A stretch of DNA of 25,312 bases, taken from IMG/VR virus record IMGVR_UViG_648276668_000012. One strand, given 5' to 3'. A program made the position numbers and the translations under genes. This stretch comes from a virus (taxonomy: Duplodnaviria > Heunggongvirae > Uroviricota > Caudoviricetes). Positions 1-22,053 of the stretch are shown in pieces (the first letter of the stretch is position 1; each line of letters begins with the position of its first letter). The notes under the pieces are model-generated. The model searched no databases, was not told where the DNA came from, and was given only the letters and a program-made list of their open reading frames with translations.

Positions 1-1056
1 TTATTGCGGGGTAATGCCAACCGCTGCCGCCACTTTGTCGCCATTTGGTAACGTTGCCAGTGGATTGAAACGGAGCGCCGTTTCCAAATGATCCGGTGCC
101 AGATGCGCATAACGCATAGTCATTTTTATATCGTGGTGTCCGAGAATTTTTTGTAAGGCCAAGATGTTTCCACCCGACATCATGAAGTGCGCCGCAAACG
201 TATGGCGCAGAACGTGTGTCAGTTGACCGCGAGGGAGAACGATAGACGTTTTTTCCATCACGGATAAAAATTGAAAATAGCAGTCTGTGAAGAAATTGAA
301 CCCATCGAGCGCCATGATCTCTTCATAAAGCTCTTTACTGATAGGGATGCTTCTGTTTTTCTTCCCCTTCGTTCTCACAAAGGTGATTCGGTACTTGGTG
401 ACCTGTGAGCGGGTAAGATTGATTGCTTCTCGCCAACGTGCGCCTGTACTTAGACATATTTTTACCACCAGTGCCAGAATTGGGTTCTGACGTTTGCAGT
501 CAGACAGTAATTCGATAATCTGCTCATGTGTAAGCCATGCCATTTCCTTTTCTGCGATAGTGAATTTGCGCATCTTCTCTAATGGGTTTGGAAGTGTCCA
601 TTCACCCAGGCGGGAAAGTTCTCTGAAAACGCTGCTTAGATGGCTTTGCTCCAGGTTAACAGTAACTGGGCTTGCTCCTTTCTTCCATTTTTCACTGAAG
701 TAGATTTCACCAGTAAGGCGTTTATCGCGATAGTGAGCAAACATTTTTGAGGTGAGATCAGTTGCAAGGGGATTTCCCAAGGCGTCAACCATCAACAGCA
801 GCTTGTTGTAGACATGCTGTCCGGCAGTAAGAGATTTGCCATGTAATTTGAACCATAGCTCAACCATATCTTTCAGTGTCCGACGATCCACTGATTCGCC
901 CAGCCAGGGCTTTGCTTCTATTTCCCCCATGGTGTATCGCTCGAAGGCCAGTGCTTCGCCTTTGGTGGCGAATTGTTTACGCACACGGCGTCCGCTACGT
1001 CCGGCGGGGTAACATTCGCAAAGCCATTTCCCTGTGGTTAGTTTTCGTACTGCCAT
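1..1056 (-). CDS. int: Tyrosine site-specific integrase (P2/186 family)
   Basis: 351-aa ORF; C-terminal catalytic region with conserved tyrosine-recombinase residues (HxxR ... MTMRYAHLAP); GGAGGG RBS 8 nt upstream of the ATG; sits at the prophage edge next to the repressor module. Confidence 0.9.
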   Translation of the reverse strand: MAVRKLTTGKWLCECYPAGRSGRRVRKQFATKGEALAFERYTMGEIEAKPWLGESVDRRTLKDMVELWFKLHGKSLTAGQHVYNKLLLMVDALGNPLATDLTSKMFAHYRDKRLTGEIYFSEKWKKGASPVTVNLEQSHLSSVFRELSRLGEWTLPNPLEKMRKFTIAEKEMAWLTHEQIIELLSDCKRQNPILALVVKICLSTGARWREAINLTRSQVTKYRITFVRTKGKKNRSIPISKELYEEIMALDGFNFFTDCYFQFLSVMEKTSIVLPRGQLTHVLRHTFAAHFMMSGGNILALQKILGHHDIKMTMRYAHLAPDHLETALRFNPLATLPNGDKVAAAVGITPQ

Positions 1057-1134
1057 AAAAAATGCCCTCCAATAGAGAGCATTTTTACTGTATGTATAAC
1101 CAGTGTCAATGTATGATGCTTAAGGTTACATACA

Positions 1135-1506
1135 TCATAAGTACCGATATGATTGCGGGGCCGTTATGTTATCACCTAATGAACTTAGATGAAGTGGTTG
1201 GTCATAGATTTTTAGATTACCAATTTCTATAGCAAAGGCCTTTTCTTTGCTATGAAAATATGAGTCAAAAAATTGTTTACTGATACCCGCGTATTGGCTT
1301 GTTTTTTCCCATACAATACTCGGCTTGCCTTCTATAACATCTGCAATGTCAAATTCAGCAACAACTTTACCGACAGGCATTGTTGAATAAATAACCACAG
1401 ATTTTACATCCGGGTTTTTGAAAATACCTTTCCTGAATTCAAACTTCTTTGTTCCATTAAGAATTTTTTCAACAAATTCAGGTTTTATTGACAATAACAC
1501 TTTCAT
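1135..1506 (-). CDS. ASCH-domain (PUA-like fold) protein
   Basis: 123-aa ORF; N-terminal 'LSIKPEFVEKILNGTKKFEFRKG' matches the ASCH-domain signature by recall; AT-rich codon usage unlike the phage backbone. Confidence 0.6.
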   Translation of the reverse strand: MKVLLSIKPEFVEKILNGTKKFEFRKGIFKNPDVKSVVIYSTMPVGKVVAEFDIADVIEGKPSIVWEKTSQYAGISKQFFDSYFHSKEKAFAIEIGNLKIYDQPLHLSSLGDNITAPQSYRYL

Positions 1507-1711
1507 CTACAGCACCAAGTTTAATTATATCGTCAAATTGCTTATCGGTTAATTTAACAACACCCCAACGGTTTTTAGGATTCAAACCAATTTCTTCGAT
1601 TAGTTTAGCACGATTTATTCTTTTAGGTAAAGCTAGATTATATGTAAAACTAATAATGTAAGGGTATCTTTTTGTTTGATAGAATTTTTTTAATTCATTT
1701 TCAGAAAACAC
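1478..1711 (-). CDS. Hypothetical small protein (77 aa), overlaps the ASCH gene by 29 nt
   Basis: ORF with GTG start and no clear Shine-Dalgarno; different frame from the downstream ASCH ORF; could be a separate coupled gene or an artefact. Confidence 0.35.
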   Translation of the reverse strand: MFSENELKKFYQTKRYPYIISFTYNLALPKRINRAKLIEEIGLNPKNRWGVVKLTDKQFDDIIKLGAVDESVIVNKT

Positions 1712-1851
1712 ACTGTATCGTGCACAATACTGTATGAATTCATTTTCACTATGAAAAGAATCAATATATCTAATATCTTCAACTACACATAATGACGTTG
1801 CGACAGAACGATAGTATGCTCTGTTCTCTTCGTCACTTGTTCTGTAAACAA

Positions 1852-2553
1852 CTAATATGTCATGTTTTTTATTTTTGTTACATCATGCATTCTGCATATG
1901 TATATTTTTCTAATGCTGTTAGCATGAGATACATCCGTTATTATATCTGGAGATTCGGTGACGAGTTTTGAATCCGGAAAAAGTTTAGTATGAAATTTAG
2001 GGTATATTGATAATAGATATTTGCTCTCATTATTTTTATTGTTTATATATGGGTAATCAGAAAGAATATCTCCTGTGAGGTGATCTCTATTCATCTCTCT
2101 TACTAAGACATTTTCTATACCATTTGCGGTTTTTTTTGTGCCATGAAGAATGAATCCATAAAGTTTGAATAGTTTTATTAAATATTCATGTTTTTCAAAT
2201 ACAGTAACATAAATATCATTAACTTTTTCTTTTAAAGCATGGTCAAATATTTTTTTAAAAACGTTGTCCTCGTAATGTTTTTTTGTGTTGAACTTAAAAG
2301 TTCCAATTTTCAAATGCTTATCGTTAACGATTGATGGTGTAACATCTGTTATTGTACCGTGCTCAATTTTTAAATACATAAAACCATCAATGGTATTATC
2401 GTCATTATAAAGTACATATGCTTTTTCTTCTGGATTCAGGCTTTTTTTGTTAAACCATTCAATAAAACCGTGTTTATAGTCATTTTTTAATGAATCAAAG
2501 AATATATCATCAAAATTTACTTGACTGAATGGAATAAGCTTTAAATTTTCCAT
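1852..2553 (-). CDS. Hypothetical protein (233 aa), cargo island; possible acyl-transferase-like fold (weak)
   Basis: Uninterrupted 233-aa ORF, AT-rich, co-oriented with flanking genes; C-terminal segment 'EKHEYLIKLFKLYGFILHG' loosely resembles the GNAT motif B region, but no clear motif A. Confidence 0.5.
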   Translation of the reverse strand: MENLKLIPFSQVNFDDIFFDSLKNDYKHGFIEWFNKKSLNPEEKAYVLYNDDNTIDGFMYLKIEHGTITDVTPSIVNDKHLKIGTFKFNTKKHYEDNVFKKIFDHALKEKVNDIYVTVFEKHEYLIKLFKLYGFILHGTKKTANGIENVLVREMNRDHLTGDILSDYPYINNKNNESKYLLSIYPKFHTKLFPDSKLVTESPDIITDVSHANSIRKIYICRMHDVTKIKNMTY

Positions 2554-2580
2554 GTTGCCCCCTGTTTAATTTTTGTGTGA

Positions 2581-3651
2581 TTATCTTCTATAGGTCAAAA
2601 GGTGAATTAATATATATATTGCAATAGCTAGGATTGCTCCACATATATAATATGTGCCTGTCGGTATGAATTTAAGAATAAAAGCAAAGGCGGCACCATA
2701 TATCAAGTATGCGAAAATTTTACTGAATTTTGTTTTCGTGTTTTTAAACTTCACAACAACAGAGAAGTCATTTAGTCTTGCTTTTTTATCATTAACAATC
2801 TTCCAATGGTAAATCATAGGATCGTGATCACCAAATGAAATATCCTTATCGAAATATTTTGTCCATGTTTCAGACTCTAATATTCTACATCCTTTATAAC
2901 TTGAACCAGATGCTGAACATTCATCAACAATATCTCTAATGATAAACAAATGTGTTTTTAAAGGCGTACAAGCGGCGCTCGCCAGAGTTGTAGCGATTTC
3001 TGAAGGTAGGTTTCTTTGTTCATTGATCCTAAAGTCAATAATATCAGAACGCTCAATATTGCTTTTGAGAAAGAGATCTTTGGGATAAAATGTTTTTACT
3101 AAAATACCTATATCATCAATGTTGAGTTTAACGCGAAATCTCAAGTAATGTGGAGCGTCCTCTGAAGATAGGCAATCTTTTAGCTTGAAAACAATAAAAG
3201 TACCATTATGTATTTTAGTTACCTTAACTCTACGGTCAAGTTCACCACCACTAAAAGTTAGCTTTGTATTAACAACTAAATCACCTTTATTCGCGAGTAC
3301 TAATTTTAAATGTCTGACGTCTACAGTTTTGGTATTAATAAGATACTCATTAAAAACAGCCGTTACGAGATCTCGGCTTGACTCGAGATTTTCACTAAGA
3401 TCCGAAAAAAAACAGTTTTCTTTCTCAAATGGTAAAAATATGCATATTGCGCCATGATTTGCAATAGTATCGTCATCGGGTTTTTCAAACGTAATACCAA
3501 AATCTAAATAACCAAATTTATGAGCACTTAGATTCCAAAAGTTTATATGCAACTCATTAATAAAATTCTTGTGTTCAGGGTTATAGGTCGAGCTCGAATC
3601 ACTGCGATAATCCCTGCATCCCCAGACAGCAAAACTTTTTGACATAAACAT
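2581..3651 (-). CDS. Hypothetical protein (356 aa) with C-terminal double transmembrane anchor
   Basis: Long AT-rich ORF; last ~45 residues form two hydrophobic helices (IFAYLIYGAAFAFILKF ... YYICGAILAIAIYILIHLL); no recognisable catalytic motif. Confidence 0.55.
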   Translation of the reverse strand: MFMSKSFAVWGCRDYRSDSSSTYNPEHKNFINELHINFWNLSAHKFGYLDFGITFEKPDDDTIANHGAICIFLPFEKENCFFSDLSENLESSRDLVTAVFNEYLINTKTVDVRHLKLVLANKGDLVVNTKLTFSGGELDRRVKVTKIHNGTFIVFKLKDCLSSEDAPHYLRFRVKLNIDDIGILVKTFYPKDLFLKSNIERSDIIDFRINEQRNLPSEIATTLASAACTPLKTHLFIIRDIVDECSASGSSYKGCRILESETWTKYFDKDISFGDHDPMIYHWKIVNDKKARLNDFSVVVKFKNTKTKFSKIFAYLIYGAAFAFILKFIPTGTYYICGAILAIAIYILIHLLTYRR

Positions 3652-3673
3652 TTCCTTATATCATAGTAAGTTA

Positions 3674-4240
3674 TTATACATCTGATAATATTTTTCGATA
3701 GCATCTTGCGATGGGTTTAATATCGTCAAGCATACAATCAAAAGATGTTTGTCCACTGCTAACTTGCACTCTCCCAACTGGAATTCTAACCAGATCACGA
3801 GAACTTATTTTTCCTTCTATTTCAACAATCCATTTCCCATCAATAATTTCATCAAATTTCATGTCTACTAGATAATTATCTGATAACTCAGAAAATATTG
3901 CGGGGGTAATCATATCCTCCGGGAGCAAATCTTTATCAAAAATGTAAGAGGAATCACCTTGTAGCTTGCCATCTACTATTTTGTAATGTGGCAATTTTAT
4001 ACCTTCTTTCGTTGCCTCAAGACGAGGGGAACCAACACCAGACACTAACCACTCGAGAGACACTCCCGTTTCTAGAGCGCACTGGATTACCCAATCTGCT
4101 GGAAAAATATCACGCATATAGCGCGTTGCCATGGTGCTCTTAGAAACACCTAAATGATCACAGAGAGCCTGACGGGTACCGAACCCATATGCTTCAACTA
4201 AACGTTCTATGGCTTTCTTACCGCCGCTATTGAAATCCAT
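3674..4240 (-). CDS. cI: CI-type immunity repressor (186 CI-like)
   Basis: Protein 'MDFNSGGKKAIERLVEAYGF...CALETGVSLEWLVSGVG' resembles the 186 CI N-terminal DNA-binding domain; chosen start has GGAG RBS 6 nt upstream (the track's longer ORF to 4327 lacks this); position between int and apl/cII. Confidence 0.75.
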   Translation of the reverse strand: MDFNSGGKKAIERLVEAYGFGTRQALCDHLGVSKSTMATRYMRDIFPADWVIQCALETGVSLEWLVSGVGSPRLEATKEGIKLPHYKIVDGKLQGDSSYIFDKDLLPEDMITPAIFSELSDNYLVDMKFDEIIDGKWIVEIEGKISSRDLVRIPVGRVQVSSGQTSFDCMLDDIKPIARCYRKILSDV

Positions 4241-4267
4241 AAGTTCTCCAAAGAAATCCAAAATTCG

Positions 4268-4296
4268 TTGACAGATTCCAAAAGCGATCTTAAAGT
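4268..4296 (+). promoter_or_regulatory. Candidate rightward early promoter (pR-like): TTGACA-N17-TAAAGT
   Basis: Perfect -35 hexamer TTGACA at 4268-4273, 17-nt spacer, -10-like TAAAGT at 4291-4296, about 90 bp upstream of the apl start. Confidence 0.4.
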
Positions 4297-4385
4297 TGAA
4301 CCAGAAGTGTTCTTTTGGAGCCTTCACTACTAATCACGACAAACAACGGCTCGCCACAAGCCATATCTAGAAGGAATGTTGCCTT

Positions 4386-4589
4386 ATGACACCTAACATT
4401 TCAATTACTCTGAATACACCACATGTCACAATCGAACGTTATAGCGAACTGACTGGCCTTTCTATTGATACGATTAACGACATGTTGGCTGATGGCCGAC
4501 TACCTCGTCATCGTCTTCGTAAAGACAAAAAACGTGAAAAGGTAATGATTAACCTGGCTGCTCTGACTGTTGATGCTTTGTCTGCTTAA
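4386..4589 (+). CDS. apl: Apl/Cox-like excisionase and transcriptional regulator
   Basis: 67-aa protein with helix-turn-helix-like segment ([22 protein letters not shown]); first gene of the rightward operon, divergent from cI, as in 186/P2. Confidence 0.6.
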
Positions 4590-7058: not shown

Positions 7059-9469
7059 GCCATGCTGATATGAACAACTGCAGCGGCTTTAACGAGGTCG
7101 CCGCAGCATTCTCATGGAACAGCCCGAAAAAGGCCATTAACCCTTATCTGGACCCGGCGGAAGTTGCGCCGGTTTCTGCGCTTTCAAACCTGATCACTCT
7201 GTACGCTGCCGATAACGAGCAGGAACAACTGCGCCGCGAGGCACTGAGTGATCAGGTCTGGGAGCGTTATTTCTTTAATGAATCCCATGATCCTGTCCAG
7301 CGCGAAATGAAGCAGGATAAGCTCATTAGCCGGGCAAAGCTGGCGCATGAGCAGCAGCGTTTTAATCCGGATATGGTCATTCTGGCGGACGTCAACGCCC
7401 AGCCTTCCCATATCAGCAAGCCGCTGATGCAACGTATTGAATACTTTAGCAGCCTGGGCAGGCCAAAGGCTTATTCCCGCTATTTACGTGAGACGATTAA
7501 GCCATGTCTGGAACGACTGGAGCATGTACGCGACAGCCAGCTATCTGCATCTTTTCGCTTTATGGCAAGCCATGAAGGGCTGGACGGCCTGCTGATCCTG
7601 CCTGAAATGAGTCAGGATCAGGTGAAGCGCCTGTCTACCCTTGTCGCCGCGCATATGAGCATGTGCCTTGATGCAGCTTGTGGTGATTTGTATGCCACCG
7701 ATGACGTTAAGCCAGAAGAAATCCGCAAGACATGGGAAAAGGTGGCAGCGGAAACCCTGCGTCTGGATGTCATCCCGCCTGCGTTTGAGCAACTCCGCCG
7801 GAAAAGAAACCGCCGTAAACCCGTGCCCTATGAACTCATTCCGGGTTCGCTGGCGCGTATGTTGTGCGCCGACTGGTGGTACCGGAAATTATGGAAGATG
7901 CGTTGCGAATGGCGGGAAGAGCAGTTGCGTGCTGTTTGCCTGGTCAGCAAAAAAGCATCTCCCTATGTCAGCTATGAAGCCGTGATGCATAAACGTGAGC
8001 AGCGCCGTAAGTCGCTGGAGTTTTTCCGTTCTCATGAACTGGTGAACGAAGACGGCGACACGCTGAACATGGAGGATGTGGTAAACGCCAGCAGCAGCAA
8101 CCCGGCGCATCGCCGCAACGAGATGATGGCCTGTGTTAAAGGCCTGGAGCTTATCGCGGAAATGCGTGGTGACTGCGCCGTTTTCTACACCATCACCTGT
8201 CCGTCACGTTTCCATTCCACGCTAAATAACGGCAGGCCCAACCCGACCTGGACAAATGCGACGGTAAGACAAAGCAGCGATTATCTGGTCGGTATGTTTG
8301 CTGCATTTCGTAAGGCGATGCACAAAGCCGGGTTGCGCTGGTATGGCGTGCGGGTGGCTGAGCCGCATCACGACGGCACAGTTCACTGGCACCTGTTGTG
8401 TTTCATGCGCAAAAAAGACCGCCGCGCCATTACTGCATTGTTGCGTAAGTTTGCCATCCGTGAAGACCGCGAGGAGCTGGGCAATAACACGGGGCCACGC
8501 TTTAAGTCTGAGCTGATAAACCCGCGCAAAGGTACGCCAACAAGCTACATCGCGAAATATATCAGCAAGAACATTGACGGGCGTGGTCTGGCTGGCGAGA
8601 TCAGCAAGGAAACGGGTAAATCTCTGCGTGATAACGCTGAATACGTGAATGCCTGGGCGTCTTTGCATCGTGTTCAGCAATTCCGCTTCTTTGGTATTCC
8701 GGGACGTCAGGCTTACCGTGAACTTCGCTTGCTGGCTGGTCAGGCGGCAAGGCAACAGGGTGACAAAAAAGCAGGTGCGCCGGTACTGGATAACCCGTGT
8801 CTTGATGCCATTCTGGCTGCTGCTGATGCTGGTTGTTTTGCCACCTACATCATGAAGCAGGGCGGCGTACTGGTTCCCCGTAAATATCACCTCATCAGAA
8901 CCGCTTATGAAATCAACGAAGAGCCGACCGCCTATGGCGATCACGGTATTCGTATTTATGGCATCTGGTCACCCATTGCAGAGGGCAAGATCTGCACTCA
9001 TTCAGTGAAGTGGAAAATGGTTCGTAAAGCCGTTGACGTTCAGGAGGCGGCAGCCGACCAGGGCGCTTGCGCCCCTTGGACTCGTGGCAATAACTGTCCC
9101 CTTGCTGAAAATTTGAACCAACAGGAGAAAGATAAATCAGCTGATGGGGACACCAGAACGGACATTACCCGCATGGATGACAAGGAGTTGCACGATTACC
9201 TGCACAGTATGAGCAAAAAAGAGCGCCGGGAACTGGCTGCAAGGTTACGCTTGGTGAAACCGAAACGGCGTAAAGACTACAAACAGCGAATTACAGATCA
9301 TCAGCGACAGCAGCTCGTTTATGAGCTGAAGTCCAGAGGATTTGATGGCAGCGAGAAAGAGGTCGATTTACTCCTTCGCGGCGGCAGTATTCCGTCAGGA
9401 GCAGGCCTGCGTATCTTCTATCGGAACCAGCGTCTGCAGGAGGATGATAAATGGCGGAACCTGTATTAA
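7055..9469 (+). CDS. A: Replication initiation protein A (rolling-circle nicking endonuclease, P2 gpA family)
   Basis: About 805 aa; contains the HxH-type motif 'VHWHLLCF' and a tyrosine-rich active-site region 'YIAKYISKN'; start ATG overlaps the dam stop (ATGA). Confidence 0.85.
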
Positions 9470-9562
9470 TTACGCTGGTTAACAATTCGTGCTCTTAATA
9501 ATACCAGGCATATCAGGCTGATGAGCGTAAAAAACGTTTTACATCAGTAAGATTATTATATA

Positions 9563-9578
9563 CTGTAAATATAAACAG
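9563..9578. promoter_or_regulatory. LexA (SOS) box CTGTAAATATAAACAG
   Basis: Exact CTGT-N8-ACAG with AT-rich spacer, 44 bp upstream of the ATG at 9622, overlapping an AT-rich -10-like region (TATACT). Confidence 0.6.
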
Positions 9579-9621
9579 TGGTTATGTGTACAGTATTGCT
9601 TGTGGTGTCATAGGAGGAAAA

Positions 9622-9810
9622 ATGCAGGACTATTTTTTGGAGTCTTTGAAGCTCCAGCGCATTGATTTTTTTCTTAAGCTTGTAGCGGCTAGTGAGTGTA
9701 GTGATGAAGAGAAGGGGCTGGCTCTGCAGTGGGTTTCTGAGTTGACTGATGAACTCATGGCAAAAATCAGAACTCACGAATACAACCGCTCAATGGATGT
9801 CATCAGTTGA
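9622..9810 (+). CDS. Hypothetical protein (62 aa), first gene of an SOS-controlled pair
   Basis: AGGAGG RBS immediately upstream of the ATG; preceded by the LexA box. Confidence 0.5.
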   Translation: MQDYFLESLKLQRIDFFLKLVAASECSDEEKGLALQWVSELTDELMAKIRTHEYNRSMDVIS

Positions 9811-9820
9811 GGTGACTTTT

Positions 9821-10054
9821 ATGCGCATTGAAATAATGATCGATAAAGAGCAGAAGATTAGCCAGTCTACCCTGGACGCCCTTGAATCAGAGCTTTACCG
9901 CAATCTGCGCCCCCTATATCCAAAAACGGTAATTCGCATCCGCAAAGGTAGCTCTAACGGTGTGGAACTGACCGGACTGCAACTGGACGAAGAAAGAAAA
10001 CAAGTGATGAAAATTATGCAGAAGGTGTGGGAAGACGACAGCTGGCTGCATTAA
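9821..10054 (+). CDS. tum: DinI-family protein (Tum-like antirepressor module)
   Basis: 'MRIEIMIDKEQKISQSTLDALESEL...VWEDDSWL' aligns by eye with E. coli DinI (MRIEVTIAK...ETWESADDWF); GAGGTG RBS; LexA box upstream of the pair. Confidence 0.75.
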   Translation: MRIEIMIDKEQKISQSTLDALESELYRNLRPLYPKTVIRIRKGSSNGVELTGLQLDEERKQVMKIMQKVWEDDSWLH

Positions 10055-10213
10055 GAAAAGTTGCTGGCGTCTGAACTTGGTTCTGGCGTCAGCAAGGTTG
10101 AACAACGAGTACAGTGAGGCGTTAGGTGTGGCGTTTATTTGATGAGTGAGCGCCCGTTCTGCGACAGGTTCGGAGATTAAGGTTGAAACTACGGGCAAAA
10201 TACCATCTTTTTC

Positions 10214-10639
10214 CTACTTAATTGAGTCCAGTAACAAGTTACAGTTACTCTCATTGTAGAGAGAACGAGCAATTAGTGTTACCTGCTTTCCATTCATTCC
10301 CGGCTTATCCCATAACACAGCTTCTTGCGACGCCACAAATTCAGCATAATCAATTATGCGTTGTTCGTGATCTGGTTCCTCATAGCCAAAGTATGAGAGC
10401 GCATCGTTGTAAGCGTGGTAAGCTGCTTTCTGTAATATCTTGATATCGGCTGTAGGTACTTGCTCCGTGTAGCTAGGATCTAATTGTGTGCTACTGCCAT
10501 AGAATGCACATGAAAGGTAAGATATTGATTTCTGTTGAGCTTTAGTTCCTTTCTCATAGTTTTTAGCTGTTACCGCCTGAACTGGGACGCTAACAAAGCT
10601 TGCAACCAGAATTAAAATTAATACGTAAAAGCTTTTCAT
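10214..10639 (-). CDS. Hypothetical secreted/periplasmic protein (141 aa) with N-terminal signal peptide
   Basis: N-terminus 'MKSFYVLILILVASFVSVPVQAVTA' is a typical Sec signal peptide; AT-rich; opposite orientation to flanking genes; at the P2 tin/old-equivalent position. Confidence 0.55.
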   Translation of the reverse strand: MKSFYVLILILVASFVSVPVQAVTAKNYEKGTKAQQKSISYLSCAFYGSSTQLDPSYTEQVPTADIKILQKAAYHAYNDALSYFGYEEPDHEQRIIDYAEFVASQEAVLWDKPGMNGKQVTLIARSLYNESNCNLLLDSIK

Positions 10640-10912
10640 TTTGACCTCAGCCGAAACGTTAGAGAGACTATCGAAATTTGTAAAACCCGTGGCGATTCAG
10701 TTTGAGATCCTCCCCCTTACATGATTTTTAATCAAATATATGCTTTTGTAAGCATACCTGTTAACCGAATTATTTATTTTTAGAGATCTTCCGACATACT
10801 GATTATGCCCGCTGAGGAGTTCACCTTGCGTAAAGTCCGATTCGCTTTACTCGTCTGTGCATGCCTATGCTGCATGAGATTGCATGATCGTTTGAGGATC
10901 GTTTTTGCTAAG

Positions 10913-10936
10913 GCCCGCCAGAACTGGCGGGCTTTT
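10913..10936 (+). terminator. Rho-independent terminator (GC hairpin plus T-tract)
   Basis: GCCCGCCAG-AA-CTGGCGGGC perfect 9-bp stem followed by TTTT. Confidence 0.5.
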
Positions 10937-10981
10937 GCGTAGATCATGCACCTGCATGAAAACCACTATATAAAGCGGGCA

Positions 10982-11000
10982 GGCGTGGCGGGGATACGAG
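10982..11000. other. Candidate cos (cohesive-end) site
   Basis: GGCGTGGCGGGGATACGAG matches the first 13 nt of the remembered 186/P2 cos 19-mers (GGCGTGGCGGGGAAAGCAT / GGCGAGGCGGGGAAAGCAC); GGGGATACG repeats 22 bp downstream; lies on the portal-gene side as in P2. Confidence 0.5.
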
Positions 11001-11087
11001 CGCGCGCTGATGGGGATACGGTGTTTTTAGTAAGGTTATGAGGTAGAATTTGACGCGGTTTTTTTAAGCATATTGAGGTGTAAATAG

Positions 11088-11633
11088 ATGGATGCTATTA
11101 CTGGATTATTGGATTTTTTTAGAAAGATTCCAACGGCACTTCTTGTAGCTATTACATGTGGTTTAAGTTTGATCCTTTTTTTGCCAGAATCTTTAGCTTC
11201 TAAAGTTGCGGTTGATGGTTTCCGTAAAGAATATAGAAATTTCATAGGACCAGCATTTTTACTGGCTGTCTCTTTTTTAGTTGCAAGAGTATATCAGTTT
11301 TTTCATGACCTATATGGCGATAGACAAAGGCACAAAGTACGTATCTCTTATTTGGAGAAGCTAACTCCTGAGGAGAAGGGATACCTCTGGTCTTATATAA
11401 TTGATGGCGAAAACTCACTAATGTGTGGTCCTGAAGATGGTGTTATGGGGGGGTTGGTTGCTAAGCGCATAACCTATAGAGCTGCAAACGTGGGCAGTAT
11501 GATTGACGGATTCGCTTTCAATTTGCAGCCGTGGGCTCGCGAGCATTTACAGAACAACACTCATTTATTAGAAGGAGCGGTCGGTAGGGCAATGACACCG
11601 GGTGAGAAACTAGGATTCAGGCGTAGATTTTAA
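11088..11633 (+). CDS. Hypothetical inner-membrane protein (181 aa, two N-terminal TM helices); possibly SieB-like superinfection exclusion
   Basis: Two hydrophobic helices (IPTALLVAITCGLSLILFL; IGPAFLLAVSFLVARVYQFF) followed by a soluble domain; lies between cos and portal gene Q, where P2 has no gene; lower GC than backbone. Confidence 0.5.
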   Translation: MDAITGLLDFFRKIPTALLVAITCGLSLILFLPESLASKVAVDGFRKEYRNFIGPAFLLAVSFLVARVYQFFHDLYGDRQRHKVRISYLEKLTPEEKGYLWSYIIDGENSLMCGPEDGVMGGLVAKRITYRAANVGSMIDGFAFNLQPWAREHLQNNTHLLEGAVGRAMTPGEKLGFRRRF

Positions 11634-20482: not shown

Positions 20483-21427
20483 TTAAATTTCGGATTTGGT
20501 TTCAAGGTTTCTCAATGTATTCGGTATCAATGTTTCACTGAATCCAGAAAGCGCACAAATCACATAAATGGAGAATGAGATGTCACTACTATTATTCATA
20601 AACCCGAAGATAATATTCCCCTTGAGCATAAAGTATACAAGTACGCCAGCCATCATTGAAAGGAGTATTCTCTCCGCACCATAGAAGAAATAAGTTTTCT
20701 TTTTTAGTTCTCTGTCTGTATGGAGGCTTTTTATTTTTAGGGATACAGAAATAAACCCCCCGATGGAAGCAAAGGAAGCGGCGTATAACACCACTGGAAT
20801 AAAGTGATTAGCTTTTATGAAATTAGAATCTCTAGCCAAATATGTTATCAATGCAAGGATGATGAATATCAATGCTAAAGTTATGGCTCCTGATTGATAT
20901 AAATTCCTTCCAAGCATTGTGTTTTCATAATCGTTTTTAATGTCTCTATTTATTGCGGCGAAGTTATTTTTGTTTATATCATTTTTTCCAAGTATTGTTG
21001 CTGACATAACTGTTGCTGCTCTTTTTTTATAAATAGAAGAGCAGTTGTATTTGTAGCAATGTGAAATAAACTCATCAAAGTGCTCTTTTGAAGCATGATA
21101 TCTATCAATCTTACTGTCATCCTCCTCAATGATTGAGTCTATGAAAACGAGCATAGACTCATGAGGCGGAAGATTGGCTACTTCATAAATGACATATTCA
21201 TCCCCACGTGAATAAATTTTACTTATGGTGTTTCCACCCAAATCTGTTCCACCAACGACGTATTTGCCAATTCTTTCTTGCTGTTTTTTTTTGTATTCAT
21301 CCCTCTCCTTCTTTGTAGGTGGGGGATTGATGGGATCATTCATTGCATCCATGGGGACAATATTATCTTGCTCAGCTGCTTCTGGGGTATTGGTGTTAGT
21401 TGTCATTTTTTGTGTAGTTAATGTCAC
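20483..21427 (-). CDS. Hypothetical cargo protein (314 aa): N-terminal soluble domain plus four C-terminal TM helices
   Basis: AT-rich ORF on the strand opposite to the tail operon, between S and V; hydrophobic helices at roughly residues 170-300; own terminator. Confidence 0.6.
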   Translation of the reverse strand: MTLTTQKMTTNTNTPEAAEQDNIVPMDAMNDPINPPPTKKERDEYKKKQQERIGKYVVGGTDLGGNTISKIYSRGDEYVIYEVANLPPHESMLVFIDSIIEEDDSKIDRYHASKEHFDEFISHCYKYNCSSIYKKRAATVMSATILGKNDINKNNFAAINRDIKNDYENTMLGRNLYQSGAITLALIFIILALITYLARDSNFIKANHFIPVVLYAASFASIGGFISVSLKIKSLHTDRELKKKTYFFYGAERILLSMMAGVLVYFMLKGNIIFGFMNNSSDISFSIYVICALSGFSETLIPNTLRNLETKSEI

Positions 21428-21474
21428 AAGGAAAGTGGATATAAATATACAAATAGTACAAATAAAATCAACTT

Positions 21475-22053
21475 ATGAACGCACAACTGACTGAAATCAT
21501 GCGCCTTATCACCAATCTGATCCGCACAGGTGTAGTCACCGAAGTGGACCGGGAGAACTGGCTTTGCCGGGTGAAAACGGGCGACCTTGAAACCAACTGG
21601 ATCAGCTGGCTGACCCTGCGTGCCGGGAATGCCCGCACATGGTGGAAACCATCGGAAGGTGAGCAGGTGGTGCTGCTGAGTCTGGGCGGCAATCTGGAGA
21701 CCGCCTTTGCGCTGCCCGCTGTCTATTCGAATCAGTTCGCACCACCGTCGACGTCGGCGGACGCCTGCGTGACAGAACATCCTGACGGTGGCTGGTTTGA
21801 ATACGAACCCGCCACCGGGCGCTGGTATGTCAGGGGCATCAAATCAATGGTCATTGAGGCCGCTGACAACATCACCATGAAAACCAGTGAGTTTGTACTG
21901 GAGGCTGACCGCACGCGCATTAACAGCGAAGTGGTGATCAATGGTGGCGTTAACCAGGGCGGCGGAGCGATGAGTTCTAACGGGATCGTGGTTGATGCGC
22001 ATCAGCATACTGGCGTCCTGAAAGGCGGCGATACAACCGGAGGCCCGGTATGA
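21475..22053 (+). CDS. V: Baseplate spike / assembly protein V (P2 gpV family)
   Basis: Strong similarity by recall to P2 gpV (RTG.V.E.D......CRV.TG...T.W..WLT.RAG..RTWW.PS.GEQV; GG.MS.SSNG). Confidence 0.88.
   Translation: MNAQLTEIMRLITNLIRTGVVTEVDRENWLCRVKTGDLETNWISWLTLRAGNARTWWKPSEGEQVVLLSLGGNLETAFALPAVYSNQFAPPSTSADACVTEHPDGGWFEYEPATGRWYVRGIKSMVIEAADNITMKTSEFVLEADRTRINSEVVINGGVNQGGGAMSSNGIVVDAHQHTGVLKGGDTTGGPV

Follow-up and report, generated by a model that had tools for sequence, protein, structure and literature searches.

The protein that we call X is encoded by the minus-strand open reading frame (ORF) 2581-3651 of a 25,312-nucleotide (nt) stretch of DNA, the IMG/VR virus record IMGVR_UViG_648276668_000012, which we refer to as the window and which, judged by its gene content, is as a whole an E. 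coli prophage of 186/P2 type. X is very probably a component of the GNAT-EVE/ASCH module, the two genes of which lie directly downstream of it. It is a recurrent accessory of this module, and not a defined member of PDC-M11, the system under which PADLOC models it. The cassette formed by X and these two genes is probably a three-component, membrane-linked subtype of the module, and we infer that what X adds to it is a membrane-located function. The module is already known as a prediction, and X is unnamed in all the databases searched. The description is based on the following features, with the residues of X numbered from M3645.

2581..3645, minus strand: coding sequence of X, 354 amino acids (aa) plus stop; from an alternative upstream ATG at 3651, 356 aa
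2728..3645, minus strand: predicted cytoplasmic beta-sandwich domain of X, residues 1-306, with the conserved polar face
2668..2727, minus strand: predicted transmembrane (TM) helix 1 of X, residues 307-326; Kyte-Doolittle maximum 1.87, a helix in the model, in 146/150 relatives, with column conservation
2587..2655, minus strand: predicted TM helix 2 of X, residues 331-353, then the basic C-terminus YRR; Kyte-Doolittle maximum 2.27, a helix in the model, in ~40% of the family
1478..2553, minus strand: GNAT-EVE acetyltransferase gene, PADLOC PDC-M11A, 'GevT toxin'-like; present as the pieces 1852-2553 (233 aa) and 1478-1711 (77 aa)
1135..1506, minus strand: ASCH-domain gene, 'GevA antitoxin'-like; Pfam ASCH E 2.6e-6, PDC-M11B E 3.9e-49
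3674..4327, minus strand: 186-type CI repressor gene (cI); Pfam Phage_CI_repr and Phage_CI_C, E ~1e-30; head of the lysogenic operon
1..1056, minus strand: phage integrase gene (int); Pfam Int_N and Phage_integrase; last gene of the strand block, with rcdA/ybjJ adjoining the prophage in related genomes

The association of X with the module is seen in every locus examined, and this genomic context is the decisive evidence on X. Scoring the genes at X loci with purpose-built hidden Markov models, we find homologues of both PDC-M11A and PDC-M11B adjacent to the X homologue in 11/11 IMG/VR viral contigs with X, in 3/3 GTDB genome loci (from a profile scan with the family alignment A1), and in 6/6 plasmid loci (Paracoccus, Pseudomonas, two of Rhizobium, Methylobacterium and Paenibacillus). 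X also lies beside both partners in E. fergusonii, Serratia, Yersinia and Dickeya prophages, and in all the Logan, ENA and JGI loci that were looked up. The linkage covers plasmids of Alpha- and Gammaproteobacteria and of Bacillota, enterobacterial prophages, and metagenomic polysaccharide loci, and the linked loci include both one-helix and two-helix forms of X. The X homologues that are 24-28% identical are in polysaccharide-biosynthesis loci, not in prophages; there X is followed by a PIN-GNAT-EVE protein of 495-501 aa and then by the ASCH protein, with overlapping stop and start codons. The distant cassettes of loci L011, L014, L119 and L120 sit in metagenomic loci of capsule/O-antigen type, some of them adjoining insertion sequence (IS66) elements.

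The order of the genes changes from locus to locus. We observe X-A-B and A-B-X (A and B being the PDC-M11A and PDC-M11B homologues), a helix-turn-helix (HTH)-ASCH gene followed by PIN-GNAT, kinase and X, and cases in which X is convergent with the rest; overlaps of start and stop codons are frequent among the cassette genes. This combination of variable order and overlaps indicates that the linkage is functional and not accidental. Extended operons of five genes (loci L022, L023, L025-L027 and L119) add a small P-loop protein of the AAA_17/AAA_18/dNK-like kind and a second small GNAT. The P-loop protein resembles a nucleoside or nucleotide kinase, not an AAA+ ATPase. A Rhizobium anhuiense plasmid (L027:3273-9075) carries a single X between two modules, GNAT-EVE and ASCH upstream and HTH-ASCH, PIN-GNAT and a P-loop kinase-like gene downstream.

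Looked at from the side of the pair, X is found in 9/79 of the best viral GNAT-EVE loci and in 6/32 plasmid GNAT-EVE records, and the whole island that holds the cassette is present in 7/5426 complete E. coli genomes. Since X is with the pair in every locus examined and the pair is mostly without X, X is an optional accessory that depends on the pair, and not the reverse. Neither X nor any of 82 diverse relatives matches a system-defining PADLOC model. Where prophages have the pair but not X, GNAT-EVE is usually preceded by the repressor gene itself (48/79 loci); among the other, unrelated genes at this place, one for a 261-aa helical protein recurs at 9 loci and one for a 194-aa membrane protein with multiple helices at 6, and several are singletons. 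The 261-aa protein has a C-terminal Cys cluster and a weak match to DUF3644. The slot also holds coiled-coil proteins of 315 aa and 431 aa with two membrane helices (loci L048-L118; L003:5559-6341). These slot proteins may be alternative partners or independent morons, and tblastn of two of them against phages gave no match.

The two genes that follow X clearly belong to the GNAT-EVE/ASCH family of systems (Bell et al., PDC-M11, GevTA): a GNAT-EVE gene and a neighbouring ASCH gene are found in the same cluster, the two pieces of the former score E 6e-79 and 4e-22 against PDC-M11A, and the ASCH gene overlaps the end of the GNAT-EVE gene. The original prediction had noted the presence of genes downstream of X, which stands, and had not recognised their identity as GNAT-EVE and ASCH (PDC-M11A/B, GevT/GevA); from the sequence alone it could not reveal X as an optional accessory of these genes. 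The GNAT-EVE gene of the window is interrupted by four 1-nt deletions, at 1864, 2256 (two) and 2277, all of them in T7, T8 or A6 homopolymers, and relative to genomes 99% identical there are no other small indels in 1000-4400. Six E. coli genomes with 99% identity carry the gene intact (359 aa, 'N-acetyltransferase'), and the truncated 233-aa product is recorded in one assembly only, the source assembly GCA_000176615.2. From the homopolymer context and the single-assembly product, the frameshifts are most likely assembly or sequencing errors, and the cassette is probably intact in the organism; on the same observations we rejected a genuine GNAT-EVE pseudogene. A different situation is seen in a Dickeya undicola prophage (L016:7078-8182, and the same in L038 and L052), where GNAT-EVE has a nonsense TAG at the invariant Trp33 (GFVE*FEKK) while X and ASCH are intact. 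This is a substitution, so that it likely is a real inactivation of the putative toxin.

The homologues of GNAT-EVE combine a GNAT with a C-terminal EVE domain (by Pfam, in a Rhizobium homologue). The longer ones also have a PIN domain at the N-terminus, and an HTH is present in some of the ASCH partners. Bell et al. 2020 (PMC7641849), building on Iyer et al. 2013, described the (PIN)-GNAT-EVE + ASCH (+AAA_17) operon; they predict a toxin-antitoxin or defence role and report it as common in beta- and gammaproteobacterial prophages, and as of that paper the operon was experimentally uncharacterised. In the literature collection searched we found no experimental study of PDC-M11, GevTA or GNAT-EVE. 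The location in a gammaproteobacterial prophage agrees with Bell et al. (PMC7641849). X lies outside every model of the system, and most instances of the system are without X. Bell et al. 2020 (PMC7641849) do not mention X, and the word 'transmembrane' has 0 occurrences there; Iyer et al. 2013, or any paper on GevTA, may already note X. In the lambdoid phage PhiR47_2 (GenBank PV340567.1), the pair is annotated 'GevT toxin' and 'GevA antitoxin' and lies directly after cI, without X. In the P2-like SopEPhi (AY319521.1), the pair occupies the gpA-gpQ hotspot (orf12/orf13), also without X, so the cargo site of the pair differs between phages. A distant GNAT-EVE-like match (25% identity) is found in the Methanothermobacter phage psiM100 at 8716-9594, in the 'inserted fragment IFa' of this archaeal virus.

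As to what the pair does, a transposon-sequencing (Tn-seq) preprint on Dickeya dadantii reports a prophage in which the ASCH gene is essential and is two locus tags from an essential cI. The essential ASCH gene fits an antitoxin role; the intervening gene is presumably GNAT-EVE. ASCH proteins are N4-acetylcytidine (ac4C) amidohydrolases, or tRNA ac4C erasers (PMC6972931; bioRxiv 10.64898/2026.02.27.708502). This activity suggests a GNAT writer with an ASCH eraser as the logic of the pair, which could be an acetyl writer/eraser couple.

The X gene is real. Its product is conserved over the whole length in 24 enterobacterial homologues and its anchor recurs in 146/150 distant relatives, both of which make the ORF more than a chance reading frame. 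The 24 homologues (49-99% identity) come from a word-indexed search, together with one more at 26%; the same kind of search with the diverse alignment A2 adds 3 extra relatives. A profile search of 1.84 billion cluster representatives reports 1019 clusters at E <= 1e-3, of which 772 are at E <= 1e-10. The family matches listed are 272-446 aa long, and the N-terminal extra length of some relatives consists of low-complexity inserts, with no fused domain found. Every source labels X a 'hypothetical protein'. X has zero matches in Pfam, PADLOC, PHROGs and NCBIfam, as expected from the earlier description of a protein with no recognisable motif; Pfam, PHROG and PADLOC scans of 82 members give scattered single chance matches at most, and tblastn of X against phage genomes gave no match. 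The length of 356 aa proposed at first is upheld for the ORF and less so for its start at 3651. The ATG at 3645, the second in the ORF, is to be preferred, because a Shine-Dalgarno AAGGA (3653-3657) precedes it by 7 nt, the RefSeq call for the gene is 1065 nt in agreement with it, and the exact 354-aa product is recorded on 111 contigs.

The membrane anchor is at the C-terminal end. Kyte-Doolittle windows identify just two hydrophobic segments in X, ~309-328 (maximum 1.87) and 331-353 (maximum 2.27), and two independent AlphaFold2 runs place helices at 304-325/331-353 and at 307-326/331-353. The original prediction of about 45 hydrophobic residues forming two TM helices at the extreme C-terminus, behind a large soluble N-terminal part (~305 residues), is borne out by these results, and it would have fallen had TM helices been missing. 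For the best 150 relatives, we counted C-terminal hydrophobic segments: 59 have two, 87 have one, one has three and three have none, and the single-segment relatives often end in a hydrophilic tail. One anchoring helix is then a universal feature of the family, and the second helix is a subfamily trait. TM helix 1 has a small-residue motif, GxxGS in most relatives and YGAAFAF in X. The mean flank charges in the family are +1.0 before TM helix 1, -0.4 in the loop and +2.5 after TM helix 2; in X, KFKNTKTKFSK is ahead of helix 1 and YRR forms the C-terminus. No N-terminal signal sequence was found in X. By the positive-inside distribution of the flanks and the missing signal sequence, the ~305-residue domain would be cytoplasmic and the helices a hairpin with a short outside loop, that is, an inner-membrane protein with predicted N-in/C-in topology and a C-terminal helical hairpin.

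The soluble domain is highly constrained in a few positions. Among the 82 diverse members, with a mean column identity of 18%, 12 residues are invariant, eight of them polar (H33, N35, P72, F98, Y167, R169, D204, R206, N208, R254, E257 and W261), and ~15 further residues are nearly invariant. A first AlphaFold2 run on X gave a predicted local distance difference test (pLDDT) score of 83.4; with the 82 diverse sequences the pLDDT rises to 92.6 and the predicted TM-score (pTM) is 0.89, with all five models at >= 91.4, so that the model is confident and reproducible. On the predicted strands, conserved residues recur with i/i+2 spacing (H33/N35/W37, Y167/R169/R171, D204/R206/N208, H232/F234, H280/K282), which means that they line one face of the sheet. 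The polar face so described comprises H33/N35/W37, Y167/R169/R171, D204/R206/N208/R211, H232, R254/E257/W261 and H280/K282, and in the model it is a candidate ligand, partner or active site.

Foldseek finds neighbours of the X model at E ~1e-3 and TM-score ~0.33, namely OST1 and the M1 N-domain, which are non-catalytic scaffolding domains. With neighbours of this type, the fold reveals no function. The fold searches return no catalytic structural neighbour of the model, and profile searches of the PDB sequences with both family alignments (A1, A2) are empty at E <= 10. The two neighbours are the luminal domain of OST1/ribophorin I and the N-terminal beta-domain of M1 aminopeptidase/leukotriene A4 (LTA4) hydrolase. 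They are 5-11% identical to X, with a TM-score of ~0.33 and only 185-210 of its ~305 soluble residues aligned, and there is no sequence relationship. X is cytoplasmic and has no peptidase domain, whereas the OST1/M1 beta-domain is luminal or extracellular. There is no HExxH in the X sequence, and nothing that would make X an M1 zinc-domain protein or a member of the OST complex. We rejected a peptidase, as only the non-catalytic beta-domain of M1 resembles X. A search of the viral structure library BFVD reports one weak giant-virus match and no match to a phage structural protein fold, so that X is placed in none of the structural phage families that would have spoken against the original prediction. 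A holin or structural protein was rejected as well: the gene lies between cI and int, outside the lysis and morphogenesis cassettes, and has no fold match.

X is the first gene of its island, as the original prediction had it; the island consists of three genes between cI and int, and X comes directly after cI. The minus-strand order is cI (3674-4327), X (2581-3651), GNAT-EVE (1478-2553), ASCH (1135-1506) and int (1-1056), and X starts 28 nt past the cI stop on the same strand. The GC content of the island is 29-33% (0.29-0.33 at 1500-3500), and it is ~0.47-0.55 across most other parts of the window. In phage 186, the lysogenic transcript spans cI through to int. No minus-strand intrinsic terminators are predicted in the window 3' of cI up to int; the island would thus probably be expressed in the lysogen from the cI transcript. 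The int-to-gpA interval of P2-like prophages has been reported as a minor defence hotspot (PMC13586616).

Our favoured, if tentative, proposal is that X adds a membrane-acting abortive-infection effector output to the module. The conserved polar face would bind a ligand or partner tied to GNAT-EVE/ASCH activity, infection would alter the state of X, the TM helices would self-associate via the small-residue motif and then compromise the membrane, and this damage would be the added abortive-infection output of the module. TM helices are conserved across the family, as in TM abortive-infection effectors, and the role, which the original prediction had also proposed, is plausible and compatible with the data; that X is instead a tethered sensor or regulator is almost as probable. 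Several observations weigh against an effector. The pair is without X in ~80-90% of the sampled viral and plasmid loci and in nearly all E. coli genomes, which implies that the module has an output of its own (the GNAT toxin, sometimes with a PIN nuclease) and that a second effector is unnecessary. The second helix is found in only ~40% of the relatives, many of which have one helix and a hydrophilic tail, and the one-helix form resembles an anchor more closely than a pore. The OST1/M1 N-domain neighbours are scaffolding domains, so the fold is silent on killing, and polar residues as strongly conserved as these would be in keeping with an enzyme too. Neither by sequence nor by fold is X homologous to a known effector family (Cap15-like, RexB-like or SLATT). 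Finally, the slot upstream of GNAT-EVE holds unrelated genes in other prophages, which makes position alone weak evidence in phages.

Several of these points would be equally at home with a non-killing X, a membrane-tethered sensor, adaptor or regulator that retains GNAT-EVE, the toxin, or ASCH, the antitoxin, at the inner membrane or sets it free, and in this way determines when the module fires, with phage DNA entry or envelope events as examples of triggers. We consider this possible, if somewhat doubtful. It accounts for the co-occurrence and the one-way dependence as well as the effector model does, the pair works without X, which makes X look like an add-on regulator, a single anchoring helix, often with a hydrophilic tail, is what most relatives have, and the beta-sandwich is a fold typical of domains that bind or act as scaffolds; the overlaps or tight spacing of the genes also suggest co-translation with the partners. 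Against it, sensors of phage components are usually fast-evolving, yet X keeps 12 invariant residues at 18% mean identity, and the conserved small-residue motif of TM helix 1 exceeds what simple anchoring needs. The same conservation, a face of His, Arg, Asp, Asn, Glu and Lys on adjacent strands, leads to X as a membrane-associated enzyme or ligand-binding protein of the pathway, acting on a nucleotide, nucleic acid or lipid. The five-gene versions with an AAA_17/dNK-like kinase and an extra GNAT go in this direction, as does the ac4C amidohydrolase activity of ASCH proteins, which suggests small-molecule or nucleic-acid chemistry in the module; this we regard as unlikely.

X could instead be an independent prophage moron, for instance an inner-membrane protein for superinfection exclusion (Sie), whose only link to the pair is a shared variable slot. 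The gene is directly 3' of cI in a low-GC island, the same slot in other prophages holds unrelated genes of which several encode membrane proteins, and prophage Sie proteins are often small inner-membrane proteins, one of which, a SieB-like protein, is encoded elsewhere in the window. Against this, GNAT-EVE and ASCH accompany X wherever it was found, on plasmids and in the chromosomal polysaccharide loci of distant phyla as well, and across X loci the gene order is shuffled and the genes overlap. X has no match to SieB or to any PHROG, and we found neither a Sie family match nor X as a stand-alone prophage gene; the SieB-like gene is another ORF, 11088-11633. The linkage across phyla makes an independent moron very unlikely. 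Returning to X as an effector, a more specific version would have its action at the membrane gated by a ligand, an acetylated nucleotide or nucleic acid that GNAT-EVE writes as a signal and ASCH erases. We offer this as a long shot; if true, immune signalling here would run on acetylation, X would both receive the signal and execute the response, and in the five-gene versions the kinase-like protein and the second GNAT could feed into it.

The closest analogue by position is found in lambda, where rexA and rexB are abortive-infection genes co-transcribed with cI, and RexB is a polytopic membrane protein. The X cassette, like rexAB, lies directly downstream of the repressor on the same strand, is presumably expressed in the lysogen, and includes a membrane protein; the GevTA pair of PhiR47_2, directly after cI, is also at the position that rexAB is generally known to have in lambda. 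RexB has four helices, whereas X has a large cytoplasmic domain and a C-terminal hairpin, and the two have no sequence or fold similarity. In place of RexA, the partners of X are an acetyltransferase and an ASCH protein. TM effectors of signalling defence are a second point of comparison: the Cap15-type proteins of cyclic-oligonucleotide-based antiphage signalling systems (CBASS), with a beta-barrel and two TM helices, the TM effectors of the pyrimidine cyclase system for antiphage resistance (Pycsar), and the two-TM SLATT proteins. X shares with them a soluble beta-rich domain, one or two TM helices and a conserved pocket-like face, and it accompanies a defence module as an accessory. In X the domains come in the opposite order, with the anchor C-terminal, and there is no nucleotide cyclase at the X locus. 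These proteins are absent from the fold-search neighbours of X, and PADLOC has no match for any of the 82 family members.

Prophages, plasmids and defence islands widely carry GNAT-EVE/ASCH operons, which are known by prediction only and listed by PADLOC as a two-gene candidate. With the linkage described here, at least 1019 clusters (50% identity) of 'hypothetical' membrane-anchored proteins gain a first functional context. The polar face, the membrane anchor and the natural comparison of modules with and without X are handles on how the module senses or kills, and the X family would improve the models used to annotate defence systems.

Besides int and the 186-type CI repressor, the window encodes CII (CP76), Fil, a Dam methylase and replication protein A; the P2 portal/terminase-like genes are large ORFs assigned by position and size alone. 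In E. coli chromosomes, near-identical DNA adjoins rcdA/ybjJ. Neither a scan of the whole window with Rfam nor a search for repeats near the X gene found anything. The hotspot between gpA and the portal gene, at 9749-11633 of the window, has a GC content of 0.41-0.44 and includes the following genes.

9749-10054, plus strand: DinI-like gene
10214-10639, minus strand: ORF of 141 aa with no assigned function
11088-11633, plus strand: SieB-like superinfection-exclusion gene (Pfam E 2e-22)

The late region contains a second island of low GC content (0.35-0.42), a candidate for a moron or for defence cargo. It has two ORFs, of 314 aa and 118 aa (20483-21780, minus strand), which share an orientation opposite to that of their neighbours and have no match in Pfam or PADLOC.

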